Part shown: one piece after another, positions 3-64,000 of the stretch
Numbering within the stretch: the stretch's first letter is position 1
How the letters are laid out: each line of letters opens with the position of its first letter
Assembly (NCBI GenBank): GCA_963598855.1
Contig: CAVBVT010000002.1
Coordinates: 12,580-76,579, forward strand
Source of the DNA: Eggerthellaceae bacterium
GTDB taxonomy: Bacteria; Bacillota; Clostridia; Lachnospirales; Lachnospiraceae
DNA length: 64,000 nt
Direction of reading: 5' to 3'
Position numbers and translations under genes: made by a program
The notes under the pieces: model-generated
Seen by the model: only the letters and a program-made list of their open reading frames with translations
Told to the model about the DNA's origin: nothing
The model's database searches: none

Positions 3-506
3 CTTCTCCGTCACGCAGACCGTGTAAAGATTGCCTGCATGGCGCAGCTTGTAAATGTTATCGCGCCGATCATGACTTCTGATACAGGTGCATGGCGCCA
101 GACGATCTTTTATCCATATATGCTGACCAGCGTTTATGGAAGAGGAACCGTGCTGAATACCCAGGTATTGACTCCTGTATACGAGAGCAAAACTTATGGC
201 GAGGCTCCGTATCTGGATTCTGTTTGTGTCTGGGATGAGGAAAAAGAGGCGTTGACTATTTTTGCAGTGAACAAGAGCCTGGATGAGGATATAGAAGTTT
301 CCTGCGATTTAAGACAGTTTGAGGGGTATAAGATTGTGGAGCATATCGTGCTGGACAATGATGACCTTCAGGCAGTCAACACAGAGGCACGGCCGGAGAA
401 TGTGGTTCCTGTAAAAGCGAAAGCTGAGTGCTCGAAGCTGGATGGTGGAAAGCTGGAGGCAGTTTTTGCGAAGCACAGCTGGAATATGATCCGTCTTGCG
501 AAATAA
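3..506 (+). CDS. abfA: Alpha-L-arabinofuranosidase (GH51), C-terminal part; 5' end lies outside the window
   Basis: Frame is open from base 3 and reads LLRHADRVKIACMAQLVNVIAPIMT...RQTIFYPY, the GH51 C-terminal motif. Confidence 0.88.
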   Translation, partial: LLRHADRVKIACMAQLVNVIAPIMTSDTGAWRQTIFYPYMLTSVYGRGTVLNTQVLTPVYESKTYGEAPYLDSVCVWDEEKEALTIFAVNKSLDEDIEVSCDLRQFEGYKIVEHIVLDNDDLQAVNTEARPENVVPVKAKAECSKLDGGKLEAVFAKHSWNMIRLAK

Positions 507-609
507 AGGTCGGCAAAGTATAATAAAAGTGGTTGCAGAAAATGCAGATTAAGTGGCAGATATGTGAAAAGTCATATAGTTATTTGTGACATTATGGGAG
601 GGTTTTTAT

Positions 610-1605
610 ATGTATACACCTGCGAAGGAACGTTACGAAACCATGGAGTACAACCGCTGCGGTGAAAGCGGTCTGATGCTCCCGAAGGTATCTCTTGGAT
701 TATGGCATAATTTCGGAGACACTTCTGATTATGAAAATATGAAACAGCTTTGTTTCACAGCTTTTGACAATGGCATCACACAGTTTGACCTTGCCAACAA
801 TTACGGCCCTGCATACGGAAGTGCAGAGCGGAATTTCGGCAAGATCCTGAAAGAAGAACTGATGCCGTACCGTGACGAGCTGATCATTACAACAAAAGCC
901 GGTTATGATATGTGGGAGGGCCCTTACGGAAACTGGGGCAGCCGCAAATATCTTCTGGCCAGCCTTGACCAGAGCCTGAAACGCATGGGCCTGGAATACG
1001 TGGATATTTTTTACCATCACAGAATGGATCCGGAGACTCCTCTTGAGGAGACCATGGGTGCGCTTGCAACTGCAGTTCAGCAGGGCAAGGCTCTTTATGT
1101 GGGACTTTCCAATTATGATGGAAAAACTTTGAGCCAGGCAGCAGCGATCCTGAAGGAGCTGAGATGCCCGTTTGTCATTAACCAGAACCGTTATTCTATT
1201 TTTGACAGGACTGTGGAAGAGAACGGCCTGAAAAGAACTGCCGGTATCCTGAAAAAAGGTCTTATTACTTTCAGTCCTCTTGCACAGGGACAGCTGACAG
1301 ACCGCTACCTGAACGGAATCCCGGAGGACAGCCGTATCCGCAGGGACGGAAGATTCCTGAAAGAGAGCGCACTGACACCGGAGCGTCTGGATCAGATCCG
1401 AAGGCTTAACGATCTGGCTGCACAGCGTGGTGAGAAGCTTGCAGATATGGCACTTGGCTGGCTGCTCCAGCAGAAAGAAGTTACCAGTGTGCTGATCGGA
1501 GCATCCAAGGCGCAGCAGATCCTTGATAATGTGAAAGCAATCCATTGTGCACCGTTTAGTGCGGAAGAGCTGCGGTTGATCGATGAGATCTCGCTTCAGA
1601 AATAG
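610..1605 (+). CDS. Aldo/keto reductase (YghZ/MgrA-like L-glyceraldehyde-3-phosphate reductase)
   Basis: SLGLWHNFG, FDLANNYGP, TKAGY, YVDIFYHHR and FSPLAQG motifs; ATG at 610 follows GGGAGG. Confidence 0.9.
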   Translation: MYTPAKERYETMEYNRCGESGLMLPKVSLGLWHNFGDTSDYENMKQLCFTAFDNGITQFDLANNYGPAYGSAERNFGKILKEELMPYRDELIITTKAGYDMWEGPYGNWGSRKYLLASLDQSLKRMGLEYVDIFYHHRMDPETPLEETMGALATAVQQGKALYVGLSNYDGKTLSQAAAILKELRCPFVINQNRYSIFDRTVEENGLKRTAGILKKGLITFSPLAQGQLTDRYLNGIPEDSRIRRDGRFLKESALTPERLDQIRRLNDLAAQRGEKLADMALGWLLQQKEVTSVLIGASKAQQILDNVKAIHCAPFSAEELRLIDEISLQK

Positions 1606-1686
1606 TATTTTGGGTGGCAGAAAAGAATATGATTCCGTCAGACAAGTCAATATAGCGTTTACTTAATATTCGCTGTACTAGGTCGT

Positions 1687-1715
1687 TTGACAACAGAATA
1701 CTGGTGTGATATATT
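1687..1715 (+). promoter_or_regulatory. Sigma-A promoter of the thi operon
   Basis: TTGACA-17 nt-TATATT with extended -10 TG. Confidence 0.65.
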
Positions 1716-1727
1716 TTGACATAGCAG

Positions 1728-1755
1728 AGCGGATTGCGAATATCTGCTTTACAAA
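1728..1755. repeat. Dispersed palindromic repeat family B, copy 1 (GCGA-loop hairpin)
   Basis: AGCGGATTGCGAATATCTGCTTTACAAA; 26/28 identical to 16632-16659. Confidence 0.7.
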
Positions 1756-1764
1756 GAAAAAAGA

Positions 1765-1850
1765 GCCAGCGGGAGCTTGTGTGACAGGCTGAGAGGAAGA
1801 TAGATCTTCGACCGTACCTGATTTGGGTAATGCCAACGGAGGGAATGTGA
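1765..1850 (+). ncRNA. TPP riboswitch aptamer
   Basis: GCGGGAGC...GCTGAGAG...GACCGTACCTGATTTGGGTAATGCCAACGGAGGGAA matches the TPP consensus and lies upstream of thiamine genes. Confidence 0.93.
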
Positions 1851-1854
1851 TTTG

Positions 1855-1896
1855 AGAGCGTGTCTCCGTGGATTTTGCCGGGGATGCGCTCTTTTT
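1855..1896 (+). terminator. Intrinsic terminator (TPP expression platform)
   Basis: GAGCGTGTCTCCG / CGGGGATGCGCTC 13-bp stem followed by TTTTT. Confidence 0.8.
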
Positions 1897-2189
1897 GCAT
1901 GCAGGCTGGAATGATCTGACAATGTGCGGATGTGAAAGTGCCAGAGGCTGCATGTGGAGCTTCTGCGGTGAGCGGGCAGGAAGGGGAGCGCCTTAATGTC
2001 TGGCAGGAGGGTGATACTTTGGAGATTTTTTCCGGAAGGTCATATCAGCGATGGGAATCCGTGTTTTCGGAGTGAGAGGAAGTAAGGGAACTTCGACCGC
2101 CAAAATCTATGGGCAGACTGCAGCAGCCGGGAAATTTTTTGCCCGGGATCTGACAGAAATCTGTCTGATATTTCAGGGAGGAAAACACT

Positions 2190-2744
2190 ATGGAAAAACA
2201 AAGGATGCACACGCTTCGTATGGTAATGCTGGCAATGATGGTTGCGATCGGGGTTGTAATTTCACCGATCCTTAGAATTGAGGGAATGTGCCCGACGGCG
2301 CATCTTGTCAATATCGTATGTTCGGTTCTGATGGGACCGTGGTACTCATTTCTCTGTGCAACTATGATCGGCGTGATCCGTATGATGTTCATGGGAATTC
2401 CGCCGCTTGCACTGACAGGTGCAGTATTTGGCGCATTCCTTTCAGGTGTGTTCTACAGACTTTCCAAAGGCAAGATCATCTGCGCGGTGATCGGCGAGAT
2501 CTTTGGAACAGGTATCATCGGATCCATGGTTTCTTATCCGGTGATGGCATTCCTGATGGGAAGAGGCGGACTGACAGCGTTTTATTATACGCCGATGTTC
2601 CTTGCAGCAACCACAATGGGAGGATGTGTTGCCTACATTTTCCTGAAGGCACTGAGCAAAGCAGGCCTTCTGGTGAAATTCCAGGCAGCTATGGGAGCAA
2701 AAACATATGAGACAAAAACTTTTAAAACTGCGAAAGCAAATTAA
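2190..2744 (+). CDS. thiW: Energy-coupling factor S component ThiW (thiazole transporter)
   Basis: Hydrophobic 184 aa with P.AHLVN...GPWY and GE..GTGIIG motifs; downstream of TPP riboswitch. Confidence 0.9.
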   Translation: MEKQRMHTLRMVMLAMMVAIGVVISPILRIEGMCPTAHLVNIVCSVLMGPWYSFLCATMIGVIRMMFMGIPPLALTGAVFGAFLSGVFYRLSKGKIICAVIGEIFGTGIIGSMVSYPVMAFLMGRGGLTAFYYTPMFLAATTMGGCVAYIFLKALSKAGLLVKFQAAMGAKTYETKTFKTAKAN

Positions 2745-3531
2745 AGAGGAAAAGCCGCTGATCCACTGCATCACGAATCCGATCTCCATCCATGACTGTG
2801 CAAATGTGATCCTTGCAGTGGGAGCACGGCCGATCATGGCAGAGCATCCGGCAGAGGTGGCAGATATCACAGAATCCGCCGGTGCTCTGATGCTGAATCT
2901 TGGCAACATCACAGACGCAAGAATTCAGTCAATGAAGCGTTCCATGAGAACAGCCGTGGAAAAAAATATTCCGGTTCTTCTGGATCTTGTAGGGGTTGCC
3001 TGCAGTGATCTCCGGCTGGATCTGGCAAGAGAGCTTTTAAGCATTGGCCATACGGCTGTACTGAAAGGAAATATGTCAGAGCTTCTGGCTGTTTCCGGGC
3101 TGCCTTCTCATGCGATCGGGATTGATGCAGGAGGACAGGACGCATTGACAGCAGAAAATATAGAAGCCATCAGTGATGTGCTGAGGGCTTTTTCCAGAAA
3201 TAATCAGGCGGTGGTGTTGGCTACCGGAAAGCAGGATTTTGTGACGGATGGAGAGCAGATTGTTCTGATCGGAAATGGAACTCCGGCATTGTCCGGGATC
3301 ACAGGAACTGGCTGTATGGTCGGTGCGCTGACAGCAGCATTTTTGCCGGGACGTGAATATCTGGCAGCTGCAGTTCTTGGAACAGCACTGATGGGAATCG
3401 CCGGTGAGGAAGCAGAGAAGATCTCCCGCGGGCCGGGAAGTTTTCAGGCGAATCTGCTGGATGAGATTTATGGGATCACGGATGAAGAGCTGGTGGAGAA
3501 ATTGAAGGTGCAGGGATGTTTGGATAGATAA
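2707..3531 (+). CDS. thiM: Hydroxyethylthiazole kinase
   Basis: PLIHCITN, LAVGARPIMA, KGNMSE, ITGTGCMVG. Confidence 0.95.
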   Translation: MRQKLLKLRKQIKEEKPLIHCITNPISIHDCANVILAVGARPIMAEHPAEVADITESAGALMLNLGNITDARIQSMKRSMRTAVEKNIPVLLDLVGVACSDLRLDLARELLSIGHTAVLKGNMSELLAVSGLPSHAIGIDAGGQDALTAENIEAISDVLRAFSRNNQAVVLATGKQDFVTDGEQIVLIGNGTPALSGITGTGCMVGALTAAFLPGREYLAAAVLGTALMGIAGEEAEKISRGPGSFQANLLDEIYGITDEELVEKLKVQGCLDR

Positions 3532-3664
3532 ATGCTTTTGGGACTTCCTTGATTCGGTTAAATTATGAAATTGTAATGCAAATTAGAGATGAATGAGGAT
3601 TTGTTATTTGGAACGCGAATATCCGCGATCCTGAATGACAGATCAGAGAAATGAGGGTATCAAC

Positions 3665-4306
3665 ATGGATAGAAAAGATTTGGACACAACGCTGTATCTG
3701 GTGACAGACAGCACATATCATACAGAGGAGTCACTGCTCCATACAGTGGAAGAAGCGTGCAAAGGCGGTGTGACACTGGTTCAGCTCCGCGAGAAGAACA
3801 CAGGCGGCCGGGAATACCTGGACAAGGCTTTTAAGGTAAAAGAGATCACAGACCATTATAATGTGCCGCTGATCATTGATGATCGTGTAGATGTTGCACT
3901 GGCTTGCGATGCTGCCGGCGTTCACGTAGGATCCTCCGACATCCCGGTTGCAGTGGCCAGAAAGCTTATGGGTCCGGACAAGATCGTGGGAGCCACGGCC
4001 AAGACTGTAGAAGCAGCACAGAAAGCATATGAGGACGGCGCAGATTATCTGGGCGTAGGAGCAATCTATCCTACAACAACCAAAGTTGTAACTATCCTCA
4101 CAAAAGTCTCCACACTGAAAGACATCTGCAAGGCAGTCCCGATCCCGGCAGTAGCCATCGGAGGCCTCAATGCCGGAAATATGGACGTTCTGGAGGGGGC
4201 AGGAATGAGCGGAATGGCAGTAGTCTCCGCCATCATGAAAGCCGAAGACCCGCAGAAAAACGCCCGTGAGCTGAAAGAGAAGATTATTGCGTTGATGGAG
4301 AAATAG
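3665..4306 (+). CDS. thiE: Thiamine-phosphate synthase
   Basis: LYLVTD, VQLREK, IIDDRVDVALA, GVHVG, PTTTK, VAIGG; start placed at ATG 3665 after GAGGG. Confidence 0.95.
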   Translation: MDRKDLDTTLYLVTDSTYHTEESLLHTVEEACKGGVTLVQLREKNTGGREYLDKAFKVKEITDHYNVPLIIDDRVDVALACDAAGVHVGSSDIPVAVARKLMGPDKIVGATAKTVEAAQKAYEDGADYLGVGAIYPTTTKVVTILTKVSTLKDICKAVPIPAVAIGGLNAGNMDVLEGAGMSGMAVVSAIMKAEDPQKNARELKEKIIALMEK

Positions 4307-4753
4307 TTATTCCACCGGCAGATCCCGATGCTCCACACTGGTGGAGAAGACGATCAGCGTCTTCGTGCGGCCAAACTGCTGGAGTTCATTGATGAAGTGA
4401 TCCAGTTCCATAGTGGAACGGAATGCGACTTCAATAAGCATGGCATAGTCACCGGTAACGCAGTTGCATTCGATGACGTTGGGGATTGCCTGAATGAAAG
4501 GGTAGAAATCTTTTTTCTGATAAGGCTCTACCTCAAGGTTGATAAAAGCTTTAATATGATAACCAAGAAATACCGGGTTGACCTGGGCGTGATAGCCTGT
4601 GATCAGCCCGCTTTTTTCAAGATGCTCGATCCTGGCAGAGACTGCAGGGGAAGAAAGAAAAACTTCCTTTGCGATCTCCTTCACTGGGGTACGGGCATTT
4701 TTTTGAAGCATTTCAATGATCTTCCTGTCGATGTTATCAAGTTTATGTTCCAT
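4307..4753 (-). CDS. Lrp/AsnC family transcriptional regulator
   Basis: LDNIDRKII..LQKNAR...LSSPAV..RI..LE..G.I.GY HTH plus VTGDY RAM domain; divergent from aspA. Confidence 0.92.
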   Translation of the reverse strand: MEHKLDNIDRKIIEMLQKNARTPVKEIAKEVFLSSPAVSARIEHLEKSGLITGYHAQVNPVFLGYHIKAFINLEVEPYQKKDFYPFIQAIPNVIECNCVTGDYAMLIEVAFRSTMELDHFINELQQFGRTKTLIVFSTSVEHRDLPVE

Positions 4754-5064
4754 ATGAAGCTCCTTTCTGAGGAAAAATAATCAGCAATTTATATATTGAG
4801 TATACTGCATCTCCAGTTACAACACAAGAAACGACTTAATAAAAATAAGAATAACACATAAAATTCTTAAAAAAATTAATCTGCAATACCGAAAAACGCG
4901 AATAATCACGGTTTTATCTTAAAAGTATTTACAACTCCAAAAGAAAGTGCTAATTTCTTAGGCATCAGGAAAACAGCTGCTGATCAAATGAAACAGAAAA
5001 AAGATAATTTTATTCAGAAGAAACAAACGTGCACAGGATCAAAAGAAAGAAGAGGGATGACAAA

Positions 5065-6495
5065 ATGATGACAGAAACAAGACTGGAAGCAGATTCAATC
5101 GGAACTATGGAAGTGCCTGCAGAGGCATATTACGGAGTACAGGCATTAAGAGCAAAACAGAACTTTCCGATCACAGGAACAAAACTTCATCCGGTATTTA
5201 TCAAAAACCTGGCACAGGTAAAAAAAGCAGCAGCCATCACAAATAATAACGCAGGATTTCTCCCAGAGGAAAAAGCAGATGCCATTATCAAAGCCTGTGA
5301 TGAGGTGATCGACGGCAGATGGGCAGAAGAATTTATCGTAGATGCAATTCAGGGCGGAGCCGGAACCAGCGCAAACATGAACATGAATGAGGTGATCGCC
5401 AACAGAGCAGGAGAGCTCCTTGGCAGTCCAAAAGGAAGCTACAGCCTGATTCACCCTAACGATCATGTAAACATGGCACAGTCCACAAACGACGTAATTC
5501 CTACAGCCGGTAAACTTACAGTACTGGATCTGCTGGCACCGCTGGAAAAATCCCTGGCAAGACTTGAGAAGGAGCTTTCCGGAAAGGCAGAAGAATTTGA
5601 CGATGTGATCACAATGGGACGTACACAGCTTCAGGATGCAGTACCTGTACGACTTGGACAGGTGTTCCACGGCTACGCGTCCATGGTAGCCAGAGACCGC
5701 AGACGTATTGAAAAAGCCCACAAAGAAATGTATACAGTAAACCTTGGCGGAACAGCAGTAGGAACAGCAATCAATGTTTCTGATTCTTATTTTTACAGGA
5801 TCGTGCCGAATCTGGCAGACCTCACAGGATATCCGCTGAGACAGGCAGAAGATCTTTTTGACGCAACAGAAAACCTGGACGGTTTCGTTGCAGTGTCCGG
5901 TGTGGTAAAAACCTGTGCGGTGGATCTTTCCAAGATGTGCAACGACCTGCGGCTGATGTCTTCCGGTCCGAAAACCGGTTTTGGTGAGATCAACCTTCCG
6001 GCCAAACAGAACGGTTCCTCCATCATGCCAGGCAAGGTGAACCCGGTAATCCCGGAGGTAGTAAGCCAGGTTGCTTTTCACATTGTGGGACATGATACAA
6101 CCATTACCATGGCAGCAGAAGCCGGACAGCTGGAGCTGAACGCTTTTGAGCCTGTAGTATTCTGCAATCTTTTTGAGTCCATCACAACTCTGGAAAAAGC
6201 GGTAGATACACTGATTGAGAACTGCATCACGGGAATCACGGCAAACCGCAGACGCTGCAAAGACCTGATGGAAAGCAGCGCAGGAATCGCAACAGCACTT
6301 TGCCCGCACATTGGATATAAAGCTTCTGCAACTATTGCAAAAACTGCAGTAAAAACCGGAAAATCCGTCCGTGAGCTTGTTCTGGAACAGGGGCTGATGA
6401 CAGAGGAAGAACTGGAAACTGTGCTGGATCCGTATCTTATGACAGAAGTTGGAGAAGAGCGGAAAGAAGATGAAATACGAAGAAAAGCCTGCTGA
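5065..6495 (+). CDS. aspA: Aspartate ammonia-lyase
   Basis: QGGAGTS.NMNMNEV, HPNDHVN.AQSTND and GSSIMPGKVNPVIPE fumarate-lyase signature. Confidence 0.93.
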   Translation: MMTETRLEADSIGTMEVPAEAYYGVQALRAKQNFPITGTKLHPVFIKNLAQVKKAAAITNNNAGFLPEEKADAIIKACDEVIDGRWAEEFIVDAIQGGAGTSANMNMNEVIANRAGELLGSPKGSYSLIHPNDHVNMAQSTNDVIPTAGKLTVLDLLAPLEKSLARLEKELSGKAEEFDDVITMGRTQLQDAVPVRLGQVFHGYASMVARDRRRIEKAHKEMYTVNLGGTAVGTAINVSDSYFYRIVPNLADLTGYPLRQAEDLFDATENLDGFVAVSGVVKTCAVDLSKMCNDLRLMSSGPKTGFGEINLPAKQNGSSIMPGKVNPVIPEVVSQVAFHIVGHDTTITMAAEAGQLELNAFEPVVFCNLFESITTLEKAVDTLIENCITGITANRRRCKDLMESSAGIATALCPHIGYKASATIAKTAVKTGKSVRELVLEQGLMTEEELETVLDPYLMTEVGEERKEDEIRRKAC

Positions 6496-6535
6496 CGGGA
6501 AATTGTACATGGTGAGTAGGTGCATCGTGAAGCGT

Positions 6536-6562
6536 GCTGCTGGTCACAGAGTGAACAGTAAC
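6536..6562. repeat. Dispersed palindromic repeat family A, copy 1
   Basis: GCTGCTGGTCACAGAGTGAACAGTAAC; matches 47823-47849 and 41845-41871. Confidence 0.7.
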
Positions 6563-6591
6563 CTGATTTTTGGATAAAGAGTACATAATAT

Positions 6592-6626
6592 AAAAAGGAG
6601 ACTTGCGATAAAGCAGGCCTCCTTTT
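6592..6626 (+). terminator. Intrinsic terminator after aspA
   Basis: AAAAGGAGACTTGC-GATAAA-GCAGGCCTCCTTTT hairpin. Confidence 0.65.
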
Positions 6627-6672
6627 ATAATGGAAGAAAAAAGAAATGCGCTATAGAAGAAGGGAAAGACAC

Positions 6673-9600
6673 ATGTTAAAAAGAACAGCTATCCGGGCAC
6701 TTTGCAACACAACTGCATATCAGAGAGGTCTTGATATTTACCGCACCGGCAAAAAGATCCTGTCTCTGGAAATTCAGCCGAAAGGTGCTGTGGACAAGGT
6801 TTCCGCCACAGTGAAAGGCAGCGGAAGAAATGTATACAATACAGGATTCCAGTATAATGAAAGTGTAGAACGGGTGAGTGAAGTGTACTGTGACTGTCCG
6901 GCTTTTCGCAGTTATTCCGGGATCTGCAAGCATTGTGTGGCCGTGCTTCTGGAGTACGGGGACCGCAAGTCCTATGAGCGTGTGGAGACCCGAAAACAGC
7001 AGGATGAGGAACAGAAGCAGGCAGAATTGTTTGGCCAAACAGCGTTTCCGGCTGCCGTATCCGGAGCAGGTCAGCCTGCAACGAAGACTACCATTGAACT
7101 GAAAAGTCTTCTCAACCGTCAGATATACAGCCATATGATCCCGTTTTCCGGGGATCCGTATTTTGGCAGGGTGGAGCTGGAAACCTGCCTGAAATTCAAT
7201 TCTGTGGGAAATTGTTTTACTGTGGAATTCCGTATTGGCTGTGAAAAAAAATATATCCTGAAGGATGTGCTGGCCTTTGTGTGGAACCTGGATCATAATG
7301 AGAGAGTTTCTTATGGAAAAAATCTCGAATTTATCCATTCGGAGGAGGCTTTTTCCAGGGAATCCAGAGGCGTGCTGGCGTTTATCCGTGAATGGGTCGA
7401 GAATCATCACGGTACTTACATGGCCAGATATGAACAGTTGCAGAATATAGCTGTGGAAAAGGTAAGGGATCTTACCGTTGATAGGAAGGAACTGGAGGAT
7501 CTGCTTCTCATACTTGGCGAAAACGGTTTCAAGTTCAAAATGAACAATGATCCGGAGACAACATGGCATGCTGTCAGGGAAATTCCGGACAGAACGCTGA
7601 CGATCCGAAAGAAAGATCAGGGGCTGTCCATGGAGATCGCGCCTGTATACAGTGTGACAGGCATACGGTACCATATGTATTTTGACAGCGCGAAGGTGTA
7701 TCTGGTTTCCAGGCAGGAGCTTGGAGCAGTGGAGGAATTTGTCACCTGTCTGGAGCGGCTTCCGGCAGGCAGAGGTTTTATTGATGAACCGGACGTGCCT
7801 GCGTTTGTGAGGGAACTGCTCCCTTCCCTGGAAAAATTTTTCCACTGTGATCTCAGGGATTTTCGAGGAGGAACAGGTCTTGAATGCTATAAAGCTGCCT
7901 ACGAGATTTATCTGGATGCACCGGAGCGGGACTGGATCACCTGTAAGGCATTTTCCGTTTACGGAGAAGATAAATTCTCGGTTTTTGACAGAAGTGTATC
8001 TGCACGAACCCGGGATATTCCTGGGGAGATGGGTGTGTTTGCGATGCTGTCGAAGTATTTTAATGGTTATGATGCACAGCGAATGGAGCTTGCACTGGAC
8101 TGCCGCGCCGGGGAATATGGAAGTCTGAACGGTGAAGATGTGGACAATTCTGAGGAAAAACTCTACCAGCTTCTCAACGAGGGCATCCCTGCCATGCGGA
8201 AGCTCGGAACGGTTTACATTTCCCAGGCGATCAAGCAGATGCGCGTAACGAAAATGCCAAGAATCCGCCTTGGTGTGTCTCTGTCAGCCGGACTTCTGAA
8301 TCTGGATATGGATGTGGAAGGTATGGATCAGGTGCAGCTTTTTGACATTCTTTCCAGATATGACCGCAGGAAAAAATATTTTCGCCTGAAAGACGGCAGT
8401 TTTCTGGACGTTTCCGATGGTCAGCTTCGGGAACTTTCTGCCCTAAAAGAGGGGCTGCAGATCAGTGACAGCGAACTGAAAAAAGGAAAGACTCAGGTTC
8501 CGGCCTATCGTGCCATGTACCTGGACAGTCAGCTGAAAGGCGGAGATCTGATCAAAGTGGAGAAGGATAATGCTTTCCGTGCGCTGATCCGGAACATGCA
8601 GACAATGGAAGAACATAAATTTCAGATTCCGCAGATGCAGGAAAAAATCCTCCGCGGCTATCAGAAAGAGGGCTTTTACTGGATCAAGACTCTGAAACAT
8701 AATCAGTTTGGCGGTATCCTGGCGGATGATATGGGGCTTGGAAAAACCCTCCAGGTGATCACATTTCTCTGGTCAGAATTCCAGGAATCTGCGCCAGGAG
8801 AAAACCGACGTGCACTTGTGGTAACGCCTGCTTCACTGGTGTTTAACTGGATGAGTGAGATTGAACGCTTTGCACCGGGACTTCCGGCTACGGTTGTTAC
8901 AGGTGATGTGAAGGAGAGGAAGGCTCTGATCAAAAATGCAGGAGAACGGGAAGTTCTGATCACTTCCTATGACCTTCTGAAACGGGATCTTAAGGCGTAC
9001 CAGAAGCTGGATTTTGCTGTGCAGATTATTGATGAGGCGCAGTATATCAAAAACCACGGGACACAGGCTGCGAAGGCTGTGAAGGAGATCCGGTCGGAAT
9101 TTAGGCTGGCATTGACTGGTACGCCGGTGGAGAACCGTCTTAGTGAGCTGTGGAGTATTTTTGACTTCCTGATGCCTGGATTTCTTTATTCCTACGAAAA
9201 GTTTCGTAAGGAAATTGAGCTTCCGGCTGTACAGCGAAGTAATTCCGATGCAATGGAACGTCTGCAGAAGATGATCCTGCCTTTTGTGCTGAGGAGACTG
9301 AAACGTGATGTGCTGAAAGACCTTCCGGATAAGCTGGAAAAAGATATGTTTTCCCCGCTGGAAAGTGAGCAGAAAGAGCTTTATGAGGCTCATACAGAGC
9401 GCCTGCGTCTGATGCTGGGCATGCAGTCTGATTCGGAGTTTCGAAATTCCAAATTGCAGATCCTGGCGGAGATCACGAGGCTGCGGCAGATCTGCTGTTA
9501 TCCGGGGCTGATATATGAGGGGTATAAAGGAAATTCCTCAAAACTTGAGATGTGCATGGAGCTGGTGCGCAATGCAGTGAACGGCGGGCATAAGATCCTG

Positions 9601-59739: not shown

Positions 59740-60006
59740 CTAATCCTCCTCGATCACCTGGATCTCCAGATAATCAAACTCGATCTGTTCAATAAAATTA
59801 TCCTGATAAAAACGTGCCTTATCATGCTTCTTAAAGTCCTTCACAGTAGAATCCAGCCAGATCGGATTCCCCAGATCCATCTGATAACAGATCTCCTCAA
59901 GCCCATGAAAAATTTTATGCGTCCTTGTATCATCACTGTCATCGCAGACTACCGTATCCTGAAGCATATGATTATCTTTCCATATTTTTCCCCATAAACG
60001 AAACAT
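59740..60006 (-). CDS. Small hypothetical protein
   Basis: 88-aa ORF with GGAGG RBS, ending FDYLEIQVIEED. Confidence 0.8.
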   Translation of the reverse strand: MFRLWGKIWKDNHMLQDTVVCDDSDDTRTHKIFHGLEEICYQMDLGNPIWLDSTVKDFKKHDKARFYQDNFIEQIEFDYLEIQVIEED

Positions 60007-60229
60007 AAGTAATGACCTCCATATCTGAACCGACGCAGCATTTCATGCCCGTCTGACTTTTCTGAATTGCTGTAAGTGAACTTCAGTATAGCGGATTTTG
60101 GAACGAAAGTAAAGTTGTACACAAAACAGTGCACCGTCCCGTCCCACTTTTATTGACTAATGTGTAAAAATCCTCTATAATAAACGAAATTGTGAAAAAA
60201 AGAATCATTAGTAGATTGGAGGAACTGAA

Positions 60230-62488
60230 ATGAAACTTTACGATACCGGTGTTTATCTTCAGAACGGCCAGGATATCATTCCTGAGAACCAGGCGAACCT
60301 GCCTGCAGCAAAGGAAGAGGCTGCCAAGAATACCATCGCATATTCAATTCTCAAGGCTCACAATAAATCTGATAACATGGAGAAACTTCAGATCAAATTC
60401 GATAAACTGACTTCCCATGACATCACATTTGTAGGAATCATCCAGACAGCAAGAGCTTCAGGACTTGAGAAATTCCCGGTACCATACGTACTGACCAACT
60501 GCCACAATTCCCTCTGTGCAGTAGGCGGAACCATCAACGAAGATGACCACATGTTTGGTCTCACCTGTGCGAAGAAATATGGTGGTGTTTACGTACCGCC
60601 TCATCAGGCAGTTATCCACCAGTTCGCAAGAGAGATGCTTGCAGGCGGCGGAAAAATGATCCTCGGTTCCGACAGTCATACAAGATACGGTGCACTTGGA
60701 ACCATGGCTATGGGCGAGGGTGGCCCGGAGCTCGTGAAACAGCTTCTCTGTCAGACATACGACATCAACATGCCAGGCGTAGTTGCCATCTATCTGAAAG
60801 GCACTCCGCGCCCGGGCGTAGGACCGCAGGACGTTGCACTGGCCATCATTGGAGAAGTTTTTGCCAACGGCTATGTAAAGAACAAAGTTATGGAGTTCGT
60901 TGGACCAGGTGTTGCCAACTTAAGCGCAGATTTCCGTATCGGAATCGATGTTATGACAACAGAGACCACCTGTCTTTCCTCCATCTGGCAGACAGACGCC
61001 AAGATCGAGGAGTTCTATGCGATCCATGGAAGACCGGAAGATTATAAAGAACTGAAACCAGGCAATGTTGCATACTATGACGGATGCGTTGAGATTGACT
61101 TGAGCGAGATCAAACCAATGATCGCAATGCCGTTCCATCCAAGCAATACCTACACCATCGACGAGCTGAAAGCAAACCTGGACGACATCCTTGCAGATGT
61201 TGAGAAGAGAGCACAGGTAAGCCTCGATGGAAAAATTCCGTTCACATTAAGAGATAAGGTAATCGACGGCAAGCTTTATGTTGAGCAGGGAATCATTGCC
61301 GGATGTGCAGGCGGCGGATTCGAGAATATCTGTGCAGCAGCAGACATCCTCAAGGGCAAAAACATCGGCCACGATGCCTTTACATTAAGCGTATATCCGG
61401 CAAGTACACCGATCTATATGGAACTGGCTAAGAACGGTGTTCTTGCAGATCTCATCGGAACAGGCGCAGTTGTGAAAACTGCATTCTGCGGACCGTGCTT
61501 CGGTGCCGGAGATACACCAGCCAACAATGCGTTCAGTATCCGACACACAACCAGAAACTTCCCGAACCGTGAAGGCTCCAAGATCCAGAATGGACAGATC
61601 TCTTCCGTTGCACTTATGGATGCACGTTCCATTGCTGCAACAGCTGCAAACAAGGGATTCCTTACATCAGCAGAAGAGTTTGACGGAAGCTATTCCGAGC
61701 ATAAATATTACTTTGATAAATCCATCTACGAGAACCGTGTATTTGACAGCAAGGGCGTAGCAGATCCAAGCGTAGAGATCCAGTTTGGTCCGAACATCAA
61801 AGACTGGCCGGAGATGGCTGCACTTGCAGACAATCTGATCCTGAAAGTCGTTTCCGAGATCCACGATCCGGTTACTACAACAGATGAGCTGATCCCATCC
61901 GGTGAGACGTCCTCTTACCGTTCCAACCCGCTTGGACTTGCAGAGTTCACACTCTCCAGAAAAGATCCGGCTTACGTAGGCCGTGCAAAAGAGATCCAGG
62001 CAGCACAGAAGGCAATCCAGGCAGGCCAGTGTCCGGCTGAGGCAGTTCCGGAACTGAAACCGGTTATGGAGACCATCCATAAATCTTACCCGGATGTTGA
62101 CAAGACCAACCTTGGTGTAGGAAGCACCATCTTTGCAGTGAAGCCTGGCGACGGTTCCGCAAGAGAGCAGGCTGCATCCTGCCAGAAAGTACTTGGCGGC
62201 TGGGCAAACGTTGCCAACGAGTATGCAACCAAGCGTTATCGTTCCAACCTGATCAACTGGGGTATGCTTCCATTCCTCATCCCGGCTGGCGACCTTCCGT
62301 TCAAGAACGGTGACTACTTGTTCTTCCCGGGAATCCGCAAAGCTGTCGAGGAAAAAGCAGACGTGATCAAAGGCTACACAGTAGACGGCGACTCCCTGAA
62401 AGAGTTCGAAGTTACACTTGGTGAGCTGACAGACGATGAGAGAGAGATCATTCTCAAAGGCTGCCTGATCAACTACAACCGTAAATAA
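60230..62488 (+). CDS. ybhJ: Aconitase-family hydratase (YbhJ-like)
   Basis: [53 protein letters not shown]. Confidence 0.88.
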
Positions 62489-62508
62489 AATACAGAATAT
62501 ATTCTGAC

Positions 62509-62541
62509 AGACCGGCGAGATAAAAATCGCCGGTCTTTTTT
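62509..62541 (+). terminator. Intrinsic terminator after the hydratase
   Basis: AGACCGGCGA / TCGCCGGTCT-TTTTT. Confidence 0.85.
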
Positions 62542-62729
62542 CGGGAAAGTTCAACAAAAAATGTAACAAAAAATTAAAAAACTGCGCAAGGGAGAAAACC
62601 GTATTAATATACTCTATAACCGCCTGGATAGGGATGGCCGAAAAGAACAGGTTGAAGCCAATTGCTGCACATGCTATCCTATAGACAAACCATCGGTAAA
62701 TATTCTTAAAACAGGAAAAACATAATAAG

Positions 62730-62892
62730 GGTAGGAGCGGAATAAAAAGAATTTTCAGCAGTGCAAAAGAATATGGTCTTCCCGAACCGAAAATCCAGGA
62801 AACTGAAAGAATATGGAATGCTCGTCCGGCATGGTTCTCCTAAAAATGGCTACTGGGAAGTCATAAACAGAGAAAAGCCTTCAGTGGGATAA
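62730..62892 (+). pseudogene. Remnant of an AlbA/HATPase_c_4 (RecG C-terminal-like)-winged-helix gene
   Basis: Frame 1 SGIKRIFSSAKEYGLPEPKIQE; shifted frame KLKEYGMLVRHGSPKNGYWEVINREKPSVG*. Confidence 0.65.
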
Positions 62893-63024
62893 TTAAAATT
62901 AACAGAAAATAATGAAAAATACAAACAAATAATAAAATATAAACACATAAAACAAATAATAAACAAAAATATTGCAATAAAAATACAGAAATGTATTGAC
63001 AAAACAATACAACAGTGTTATTAT
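62893..63024 (+). promoter_or_regulatory. Strong sigma-A promoter with a long A-tract UP region
   Basis: TTGACA (62996)-17 nt-TATTAT (63019) with extended TG, preceded by about 100 bp of A-tracts. Confidence 0.75.
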
Positions 63025-63029
63025 AAGAC

Positions 63030-64000
63030 CATCAAAAAGAACAAGAGAAAAAACAAATCAAAAAGAATTAGAAATTCATTCAATTCATAGCATAGATGCA
63101 CATGAAAGGATGAAGAGAAGAAAGGACAAGGTGATTCCAGTGGGAACATAACAAACAATTTCATCAATATGAGAGTGACAGGAACCGGATTTCCTGCAAG
63201 AAAGACCTGATACATATCACATAATGATATCCCTTAAGACACAATAGTTTCTCTCATAAGATATAAATAAGAACCTCTTAAATCTTACTTATATTTTAAC
63301 AGTAGTTAAAATGAGAGAAATCAGAAACATAAGGAATCCAGTATTCTAGGTATTATAGACTCGGTAACTCATATTGAACAACTGTCACACACCTGATACA
63401 GAGATTTCAGGAAATATGTAAAGAAATATTTCCCGAAAGAGTAAAACCCTCAGCTCACTGGTTCGTTGGAAAGAAGAGATTCCAGGAACAGACGTGAAGA
63501 TGAGAACGATACTTTGAAAGGCATATCAGCAACTTCAGAATATGGCTTGAAGCTTTGCATCAGAAGAATATCTGATAGGATATTATAATAGAAGTAATCG
63601 GGAAGGAACTTTTTTTTCAGGATACTTTATCAGAACTGCAGAGGAGAAAATCCCAATAGGTCGATTTGAATCAGCAGATCATAAAGTTCAGAGATGACAA
63701 ATGGTTTTGAATTTAAGAAGTTAAGTCCAAAATTATTTAGGAAACAGAAAAAAGTATAACCACCGCAATTCTTCAAAAAATAAAAAGGAAATCTGACCTC
63801 GTAGAAATGGATTTCCAAATCTATAGAACTTTCTAAATAATCGAAGATATGTCCATATATCAATCGTTTATGAGCAGGAAATAATACGAAGGAATTGAAA
63901 AAGAAAAGATCAGGAAAACTTAATACAGAGAATCGGAATTATTTTATTAAGTATATAAAACCAAAGGTTTCGATTGATAAATAAGAAGTATAACCAATAA
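63030..64000 (+). ncRNA. Candidate large structured non-coding RNA or very long leader, truncated by the window end
   Basis: No + strand ORF of 60 aa or more downstream of the promoter; many local and long-range stems separated by A-rich linkers. Confidence 0.5.

Follow-up and report, generated by a model that had tools for sequence, protein, structure and literature searches.

A 64,000-nucleotide (nt) stretch of the genome GCA_963598855.1 (positions 12580-76579 of contig CAVBVT010000002.1, here C2; hereafter the window) ends inside the gene of a large structured noncoding RNA that belongs to a new family and is probably abundant. The assembly (G000) is deposited as an Eggerthellaceae bacterium and placed in the Lachnospiraceae, and the relatives that carry homologues bear the title Blautia. 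The RNA gene lies on the + strand, is ~1,080 nt long in this genome and 752–1,170 nt long among relatives, and is followed in most loci by a gene for a pseudouridine synthase of the RluA family. Four lines of evidence support the new-family reading: conservation, covariation, the lack of an Rfam match and contigs from RNA libraries. We are highly confident that the element is a real, transcribed, structured RNA of an undescribed family, as had been proposed from the letters of the window alone (hereafter the sequence-only reading). We lean slightly towards the view that its main role is that of an independent stable RNA, and not just that of a leader of the synthase gene.

Conservation, covariation and RNA-library evidence

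The unit is bounded by an invariant promoter and a covarying 18-base-pair (bp) terminator hairpin, with at least two conserved multi-helix domains inside. Its promoter and body in the window are as follows.

62996..63024, + strand: sigma-70-type promoter, with TTGACA (62996-63001), a 17-nt spacer carrying an extended -10 TG (63016-17), and TATTAT (63019-24)
63031..64000, + strand: RNA body in the window, with a start near 63031 predicted from the -10 hexamer; it continues to ~64110

The sequence-only reading had described a near-consensus strong promoter here, and the description is borne out: both hexamers stand at a conserved position with 17-nt spacing, and the -35 hexamer, the TG and most of the -10 hexamer are invariant in all 72 aligned homologues. 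Contig C2 (C2 coordinate = window + 12579) runs 343 nt past the window end. The element itself reaches ~110 nt beyond the window, and conservation stops near 64116 in a 15-species alignment of the whole intergenic region. The lower GC content noted earlier also holds, at 0.27–0.37 in the RNA region compared with 0.45–0.55 inside the upstream aconitase gene.

Homologues occur throughout the genus. A DNA search of 60 relatives recovered the same blocks in 33 of 36 same-genus genomes, including full-length matches in four of them at 93, 90, 86 and 70% identity; the three same-genus genomes without a match are 81–84% complete. The element is single-copy in the genome studied here. A scan using the most conserved block (63190-63214) as an exact pattern, with one genome per species, matched 88 stretches, 80 of which were retrieved as loci. 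Sixty-one of the retrieved loci are titled Blautia and 16 are titled Lachnospiraceae, Clostridiales, Eubacteriales or 'Ruminococcus sp.'; the three that bear other names (Defluviimonas, Holdemanella and Prevotella bins) are taken to be bin contamination. The noncoding blocks are 67–77% identical, and the adjacent synthase protein just 56–61%.

For the alignment, 81 sequences (the window copy and the 80 loci) were reduced to 72, all different, by requiring both the promoter and the 3' block. The nine that were dropped (L041, L045, L051, L058, L067, L076, L083, L102, L103) showed no 3' block by nhmmer, and several of them are cut by contig ends. The 72 homologues are 54–93% identical to the window copy. 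They were aligned with MAFFT, using no structural information (alignment A1), and the structure was modeled block by block with RNAalifold, with helices a and c and the crossing helix b added by hand.

The resulting model shows strong covariation. Its 166 pairs in 27 helices are 94.7% paired on A1, compared with 38.7–45.8% when the 3' partners are slid by 1–3 columns, a measure on which the model has an advantage over its slid versions because it was partly derived from A1. Compensatory counts are less affected by this derivation: 93 pairs have changes on both sides, against 37–55 in the slid versions and a shuffle mean of 48.6, and none of 500 shuffles reaches 93. Double-change cells number 694 (94–168 when slid), and the covariation score is 0.216 (0.048–0.079 when slid). 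Compensatory changes are thus above controls that preserve relatedness, and frequent G-U pairs are consistent with the + strand. A screen of all column pairs by a G-test with average product correction gave its highest ranks to known-looking helices, whose canonical fractions were close to 1.0; it replaced a score of fraction paired plus pair-type count, which was swamped by A/U-rich chance stacks. With 20 shuffles per strand, the minimum free energy of the 970 nt from 63031 has z-scores of -3.70 (+ strand) and -2.11 (- strand). Folding against shuffles and covariation among homologues were the checks that the sequence-only reading had named for its proposal, and both came out in its favor.

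No known family accounts for the element. Rfam 15, searched with cmscan at E ≤ 1, gave 0 matches in window 60000-64000, ROOL, GOLLD, OLE, HEARO and the group I/II introns among the families looked for, and gave just four microRNA-model matches, far below the gathering score, in six homologous loci. RNase P (C100, 295.8 bits), tmRNA (C27, 150.7 bits) and 6S RNA (C101, 60.4 bits) lie elsewhere in the genome, above their cut-offs, in keeping with the earlier remark that no tmRNA or RNase P was recognized here. OLE (RF01071), raiA (RF03072) and ROOL (RF03087) were not found in the genome, which is 94.5% complete; this absence is weak evidence, since control genomes were silent as well. A full-text literature search returned no report of a large Blautia RNA, nor of any leader peptide that precedes a gene for a pseudouridine synthase. 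By term search, 'Blautia' is absent from the main text of Fremin and Bhatt 2021 (PMC8040213), and the aconitase-context rows of its Table S1 are 30–61 bp motifs only. A 46-bp motif among the rows, HMP2_9852 ('Ruminococcus sp. AM22-14LB' and others), might overlap part of the locus, in a table that lists motifs without sequences.

Contigs from RNA libraries cover the element. The evidence comes from 4 of 13 listed RNA-type runs, which belong to four studies: two of gut, one of activated sludge and one of wastewater. Their Logan contigs were compared at ≥85% likeness with L002:1-2949 (window = L002 + 61394), and they cover the element over ~L002 1668-2663. Summed word depths over L002 1684-2574, which cannot rank genes in runs that were chosen by this stretch, mix organisms and possibly contain DNA, are 208–6,420 (X1), 200–6,980 (X9), 3–69 (X11) and 25–109 (X3). 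Depths in the aconitase part are 0–42 in X1 and X9, with none in X11 and X3. One contig, X9 record 31, is 490 nt long and has a depth of 3420 and 29 differences, and overlapping contigs of X3 tile L002 1682-2663 (window 63076-64057). L002 1189-1485 and 2674-2772 have no contig cover in the four runs, which is not evidence for transcript ends. Given these caveats, the presence of the RNA in RNA libraries is well evidenced, and its high abundance is a strong hint rather than proof.

Architecture of the RNA

The RNA opens with a variable A-rich stretch, followed by the invariant UCAUUCAAUUCAUAG and a GGUGAUUCC..UGGGA block. The features that follow within the window are listed here.

63164..63377, + strand: domain I, closed by helix a, with helix c nested within
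63175..63388, + strand: crossing helix b (63175-81/63382-88), a pseudoknot or an intermolecular contact
63190..63214, + strand: most conserved block, TTTCCTGCAAGAAAGACCTGATACA, with nearly all columns invariant in the 72 sequences
63215..63340, + strand: variable insertion in domain I, lineage-specific in length and sequence, with low conservation and large indels
63393..63563, + strand: domain II, a multibranch junction closed by helix 11 (63393-63403/63553-63563; 7 of 10 pairs compensatory)
63406-63437, + strand: domain II hairpin with an invariant GUAAAGAA loop (63418-25); 10 of 11 pairs compensatory
63438-63515, + strand: long irregular arm of domain II, within helices 11–19
63518-63548, + strand: third hairpin of domain II, covarying
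63567..63584, + strand: hairpin, helix 20; 6 of 7 pairs compensatory, 88% paired
63702..63735, + strand: hairpin, helix 21; 8 of 13 pairs compensatory, 92% paired
63789..63814, + strand: hairpin, helix 22; 10 of 10 pairs compensatory, 93% paired
63826..63881, + strand: near-invariant blocks AACTTTCTAAATAA and TTTATGAGCAGGAAAT, with invariant columns

Domain I combines nested and crossing long-range helices. Helix a (helix 5; 63164-73/63368-77) is 100% paired across the 72 sequences, with 5 of 10 pairs compensatory and 37 double-change cells, and helix c (helix 7; 63183-88/63361-66) is 95% paired with all 6 pairs compensatory. Helix b (helix 6) is 99.4% paired, with 4 of 7 pairs compensatory (e.g., CG 44, UA 23) and 34 double-change cells. 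Helices a and b cross, and both covary; they are the two crossing complements that had been read from a single sequence. Their topology is that of an H-type pseudoknot with 1-nt and 4-nt loops around a 10-bp stem. Since a 4-nt loop is short for a stem of 10 bp, helix b may be intermolecular, and we regard it as either a pseudoknot or an intermolecular contact.

Domain II and the hairpins after it also covary. The fractions of compensatory pairs in helices 11–19 are 7/10, 10/11, 4/6, 5/6, 3/4, 4/4, 2/2, 4/8 and 1/1, and an irregular hairpin noted earlier at ~63449-63504 is backed by helices 13–17. The covarying hairpins that follow domain II are joined by variable A-rich linkers. The two near-invariant blocks in 63826-81 may pair with each other; this helix (helix 23) is 99% paired, but just 1 of its 9 pairs has changed on both sides.

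Other proposals of the sequence-only reading fared unevenly. All six of its long-range complements are exact in the window. Two are helices a and b; the other four (63248-57/63311-20, 63430-36/63598-604, 63624-30/63681-87 and 63858-66/63971-79) are just 51–76% paired family-wide and fall in variable or poorly aligned parts, and 63430-36 pairs locally, inside the hairpin at 63406-63437. A short local hairpin, CAGGAA/TTCCTG (63179-84/63192-97), breaks where helices b and c covary, and we discarded it. The sequence AAGTATAACCA, which had been thought to mark unit boundaries, occurs twice in the window (63752 and 63986), but a doubled AGTATAAC is found in just 8 of 72 homologues, which does not support that idea.

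We also rejected several candidates of our own. Positions 63131-35 as a partner of 63384-88 show no double change, and the pairing breaks where the 3' strand of helix b varies. A pairing of 63079-89 with 63541-51 conflicts with the covarying hairpin at 63518-48, and apparent covariation of 63136 or 63612 with the ribosome-binding site looked like alignment register noise. A hand count of GGA (CsrA-type) motifs gave ~19–20 against ~15 expected from composition, and the motif was dropped.

The RNA core tolerates modular gain and loss. Lineage-specific insertions of ~100–250 nt occur in domain I and in the long arm of domain II (A1 columns ~300-600 and ~720-1000; for example L030, L097, L033, L036, L056 and L070), and domain II is reduced to ~124 nt in seven sequences.

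Two sequence motifs deserve mention. A conserved block at 63118-63139, AGAAAGG..AAGGUGAUUCC, resembles an extended Shine-Dalgarno sequence with no open reading frame (ORF) behind it; we take it to be complementary to the 3' end of 16S rRNA. Within an invariant block, UUCUAAA at 63831-37 fits UUNNAAA, which is presumably the target motif of RluA-type enzymes. It lies outside a hairpin loop, and ~4 such matches are expected by chance per 1 kb, so we regard it as a lead only.

The 3' end of the RNA lies just past the window, in the remainder of contig C2, and brings a translation signal and a terminator together.

64018-24, + strand: Shine-Dalgarno sequence AAGAGGA
64032-52, + strand: six-codon mini-ORF, TTG AAT AAC GAA GAG TGT TGA
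64051-68/64087-64104, + strand: 18-bp terminator-like hairpin, whose foot overlaps the stop codon of the mini-ORF

The terminator hairpin (helix 27) is 97% paired, with 9 of 18 pairs compensatory, and is followed by the tail GTTGTGTGTTTG in this genome and by a more T-rich one in many relatives; termination is predicted from sequence. The mini-ORF, with AAGAGGA before it, is present in 67 of 72 homologues and follows the pattern M-N-(N/S/I/K/T)-E-(E/D)-(C/F/H/V). Its stop codon keeps a constant position and takes all three forms (TAA 36, TGA 27, TAG 6), and its last two letters are paired within the terminator foot, with which they covary. In other genera, the peptide pattern is kept (LNKEEH, LNNEEF, LNIEEI) with a different terminator stem sequence, as in three other-genus loci that we read, with MNNEEF or MNKEEH.

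Judging from the size of a ribosome footprint, the 5' arm of the hairpin would be covered while the mini-ORF is being translated. The predicted arrangement is characteristic of systems in which translation controls termination or the stability of the 3' end. The start of the mini-ORF may have a second role. A possible 5'–3' pairing joins ATTCAATT (63078-85) to AATTGAAT (64030-37, at the mini-ORF start); it is 96% paired and never varies. The invariant TTG start, together with this complementarity to the invariant 63078-85, suggests a role at the RNA level as well. Directly after the terminator, this genome carries a second perfect inverted repeat of 10 bp, GGCTGATCAA/TTGATCAGCC, at 64116-64148 (L002 2722-2754).

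The adjacent synthase gene and a proposed function of the RNA

The sequence-only reading had looked to the region beyond 64000 for a partner such as a reverse transcriptase or a nuclease. That guess is not borne out; the following gene encodes an RluA-family pseudouridine synthase. In relatives, this is a 232-amino-acid protein encoded on the same strand (PF00849, E 4.8e-32, above cut-off), without an S4 domain. It scores 143 bits on TIGR00005, against a cut-off of 192.7, and falls far below the cut-offs of the NCBIfam equivalog models RluD, RluC, TruC and RluA; its nearest solved structures are RluD, RluC and RluA. Of the 72 loci, 67 have the synthase gene downstream on the strand of the RNA, at a distance that ranges from 6 to 334 nt (median 57 nt). 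Three of the remaining loci are contig-limited, and two (L034, L077) have no synthase within 869–1,681 nt.

In the genome studied here, the synthase gene sits at the start of another contig (C1:128-826), because a multi-copy repeat breaks the assembly. This repeat forms the last ~104 nt of the contig (C2:76819-76922; L002 2846-2949). At least five other copies, 96–98% identical to it, occur in the genome (one each on C90, C171 and C60, two on C4), and a partial inverted copy follows each of them. Relatives have copies too, and the repeat has no Rfam match.

The upstream neighbor is less constant. It is an aconitase gene in 63 of 72 loci, and in the window this gene occupies 60230-62488, upstream of the RNA gene, with its own terminator (PF00330, E 6.7e-92). 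It differs in two genomes: in G010 (L022 1712-4006) the upstream ORF of 764 amino acids is a hybrid histidine kinase/response regulator by Pfam, and in G036 (L023 250-2544) an upstream ORF of the same length is probably one too. These two genomes are the closest relatives, and the upstream side of their locus is rearranged. Because the upstream gene varies, the stable linkage is to the synthase.

Outside the genus, the RNA and the mini-ORF travel together. Among 150 genera of the family, 86 have a synthase homologue at E ≤ 1e-40. We examined the 28 best synthase loci, drawn from 85 other genera with a synthase match, using a profile hidden Markov model of A1. Ahead of the synthase, six of the 28 carry the RNA core (E 9.2e-31 to 7e-4), and these six also carry the mini-ORF motif; the remaining 22 have neither. 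This scanning of synthase loci was more sensitive than a covariance model, R1, of domain II only. R1 drew on 55 sequences of A1, since 17 have a domain II shorter than 170 nt or longer than 235 nt; under strict filters it matched in G181 alone (E 5e-4) among one genome from each of 149 other genera.

Two candidate signals lie between the terminator and the synthase gene in some loci. First, a promoter-like TTGCCA-17-TATACT stands between them in many Blautia relatives (19 of 70 by regular expression). Second, 39 of 70 loci have a second hairpin at the synthase start (GGAG..T5+..ATG), whose 3' arm is the ribosome-binding site of the synthase; it would sequester that site and stop read-through transcripts. 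In 24 of 70 loci a -10-like TATAMT abuts the 5' arm of this hairpin, and transcripts started there would skip the hairpin. The hairpin can take the form CUCUCC..GGAGAG, followed by a T run and ATG (e.g., L039, L050, L070), which is terminator-like.

Considering these observations together, we propose the following model. Transcription would start near 63031, and the RNA would accumulate as an abundant stable RNA that acts in folded form, as a scaffold or ribonucleoprotein (RNP) or as a self-associating assembly. Its function would be tied to the downstream synthase: the enzyme may modify or partner the RNA, or both may serve one pathway. Ribosomes that engage the mini-ORF would open up the terminator stem, and 3'-end formation, read-through towards the synthase, or RNA stability could thereby be coupled to translation. 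A bolder version, which we offer tentatively and think more apt to be wrong than right, is that of a giant ornate RNA among the most abundant Blautia transcripts: an RNA machine or assembly with a dedicated RluA-type synthase (as part of an RNP or for a needed pseudouridylation), homo-oligomeric through helix b, whose 3' end is read or controlled by ribosomes on the mini-ORF.

Several points favor an independent RNA: its size, its elaborate conserved structure, its apparent abundance, the promoter-like site after the terminator, the second hairpin, and the insertions tolerated between the RNA and the synthase gene (the repeat in this genome, and gaps of up to 334 nt). Other points weigh against it. 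The 5' helices 1–4 show little or no compensatory change, and the RNA is A-rich (41% A, GC 0.34), with about a third of it variable linker. The RNA evidence consists of assembled contigs, in which strand and ends are not shown, Blautia species may be mixed and some DNA may have been carried over. The RNA has no known partner protein, target or phenotype. Moreover, the synthase gene is deeply linked to the RNA and has a ribosome-binding site, mini-ORF and terminator placed before it, an arrangement that looks like a cis-acting attenuator. In locus L127 (G098, another genus) only ~37 nt lie between the terminator and the synthase ATG, which leaves little room for a separate promoter.

These last points lead to the main rival, in which the whole 1-kb RNA is a giant cis-regulatory 5' leader of the synthase gene. 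Here, translation of the mini-ORF or stalling on it would block the terminator hairpin, and polymerase would continue into the synthase gene; the structured domains before the mini-ORF would detect a signal and control how accessible its start is, and the abundant RNA would be the terminated leader. The rival draws on much of the 3' evidence: a short ORF with its ribosome-binding site beside a terminator in 67 of 72 homologues, a TTG start and six codons, a stop in the terminator foot that uses three codon types, a peptide kept in other genera although the stem sequence has changed, the synthase downstream in as many loci, the close spacing in L127, and the joint presence or absence of RNA core and mini-ORF (both in 6 of 6 loci, neither in 22 of 22). 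However, leader-peptide attenuators known to us span 100–300 nt, against 750–1,170 nt here, and we found no alternative anti-terminator pairing. The promoter-like site after the terminator, a second hairpin that would block read-through, the insertions before the gene and the two loci with no synthase nearby also fit it poorly. We consider a pure leader possible, though doubtful. The stable-RNA and leader readings are not mutually exclusive, and the remaining probability lies with mixtures or other readings.

It is improbable that the region comprises several adjacent small RNAs or cis elements. Conserved blocks are indeed parted by variable linkers, and whole parts are missing in some lineages, as in the seven sequences with a domain II of ~124 nt. 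Yet the region shows only a single conserved promoter and a single conserved terminator, helices a, b and c span 200 nt, helix 11 spans 160 nt, and the contigs of run X3 overlap along the unit.

A DNA-level element, such as a regulatory region or an array of binding sites with no RNA function, would suit the AT-rich composition and the conservation of 100 nt upstream of the promoter; the compensatory changes, including G-U pairs that fit one strand only, and the RNA-library contigs that cover the unit make it very improbable.

Least probable of all, to the point of being negligible, is a decayed or unusual protein-coding gene. Short ORFs are present in 62996-64000, but the longest has 51 amino acids on the + strand, in line with the earlier statement that none there reaches 60, and 77 on the - strand. 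No ORF is conserved among the 72 homologues (longest + strand ORF: median 39.5, maximum 72 amino acids), indels in conserved blocks are not multiples of three, variation in helices is compensatory, and five local ORFs gave no Pfam match at E ≤ 1.

Related systems and the upstream region

Very few bacterial noncoding RNAs longer than ~350 nt with elaborate conserved structure are known to us. RNase P, tmRNA, group I/II introns, OLE, GOLLD, ROOL and raiA are among them, and each revealed new biochemistry or architecture. The Blautia RNA resembles OLE, ROOL, GOLLD and raiA: it is large, with many conserved helices and junctions and invariant loop nucleotides; it has its own promoter and terminator and is apparently highly abundant; and its hosts are Firmicutes of gut or rumen settings. 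In contrast to these four, it matches none of their Rfam models, is longer at ~1.08 kb, is A-rich with long variable linkers, and carries a ribosome-binding site and a six-codon mini-ORF that overlaps its terminator. Its linkage is to an RluA-family synthase, whereas these RNAs are linked to oap genes or found in prophage and tRNA contexts.

ROOL, GOLLD and OLE are reported to form homo-oligomers (PMC12286853). The crossing helix of the Blautia RNA could similarly be an intermolecular contact.

The 3' module has its closest parallel in the leader-peptide attenuators of the ermC and msr(D) type, where the MsrDL leader has six codons. These too place a short ORF with a ribosome-binding site by an intrinsic terminator, before a gene for an RNA-modifying enzyme. 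The Blautia mini-ORF differs in standing at the 3' end of a ~1-kb conserved structured RNA, in lacking an anti-terminator that we could find and a known inducer, and in preceding a gene that often has its own promoter-like site.

Two further comparisons can be made. The pairs 6S (ssrS)-ygfA and ssrA-smpB likewise keep the gene of an abundant stable RNA beside one protein gene, but the Blautia RNA is unrelated to them, its protein partner is different, and 6S RNA and tmRNA lie elsewhere in the genome. RNAIII and SR1 are structured regulatory RNAs that also carry a small ORF. In the Blautia RNA, by contrast, that ORF has merely six codons and overlaps the terminator, and no base-pairing target is known.

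Blautia is a dominant genus of the human gut, cultivable and associated with health. A ~1-kb RNA with good covariation in such a genus, apparently very abundant in metatranscriptomes of gut, wastewater and sludge, would, if it is the giant ornate RNA proposed above, be a class that had gone unrecognized there. The fixed partnership with the synthase and the ribosome-binding site and mini-ORF embedded at the terminator offer concrete experimental handles. Even as a leader only, the RNA would far exceed in size and structure any leader-peptide attenuator that we know of.

Conservation extends upstream of the promoter.

62896..62995, + strand: A/T-rich conserved region upstream of the promoter, holding a CodY-box-like 15-mer at 62897-62911

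In the 15-species alignment, conservation sets in sharply at 62896. The ~370 nt before it (62530-62895), between the aconitase terminator and the conserved element, are unconserved in relatives and contain an ORF of 43 amino acids (62761-62892) with no Pfam match. The 15-mer lies within 3 mismatches of what we take to be the CodY-box consensus, and such a 15-mer stands 97–99 nt before the -35 hexamer in 58 of 72 homologues. Window-wide, six matches occur against 4.87 expected, no excess over chance, so its fixed position alone is suggestive. The genome has a CodY gene, split across the contig ends of C52 and C147.

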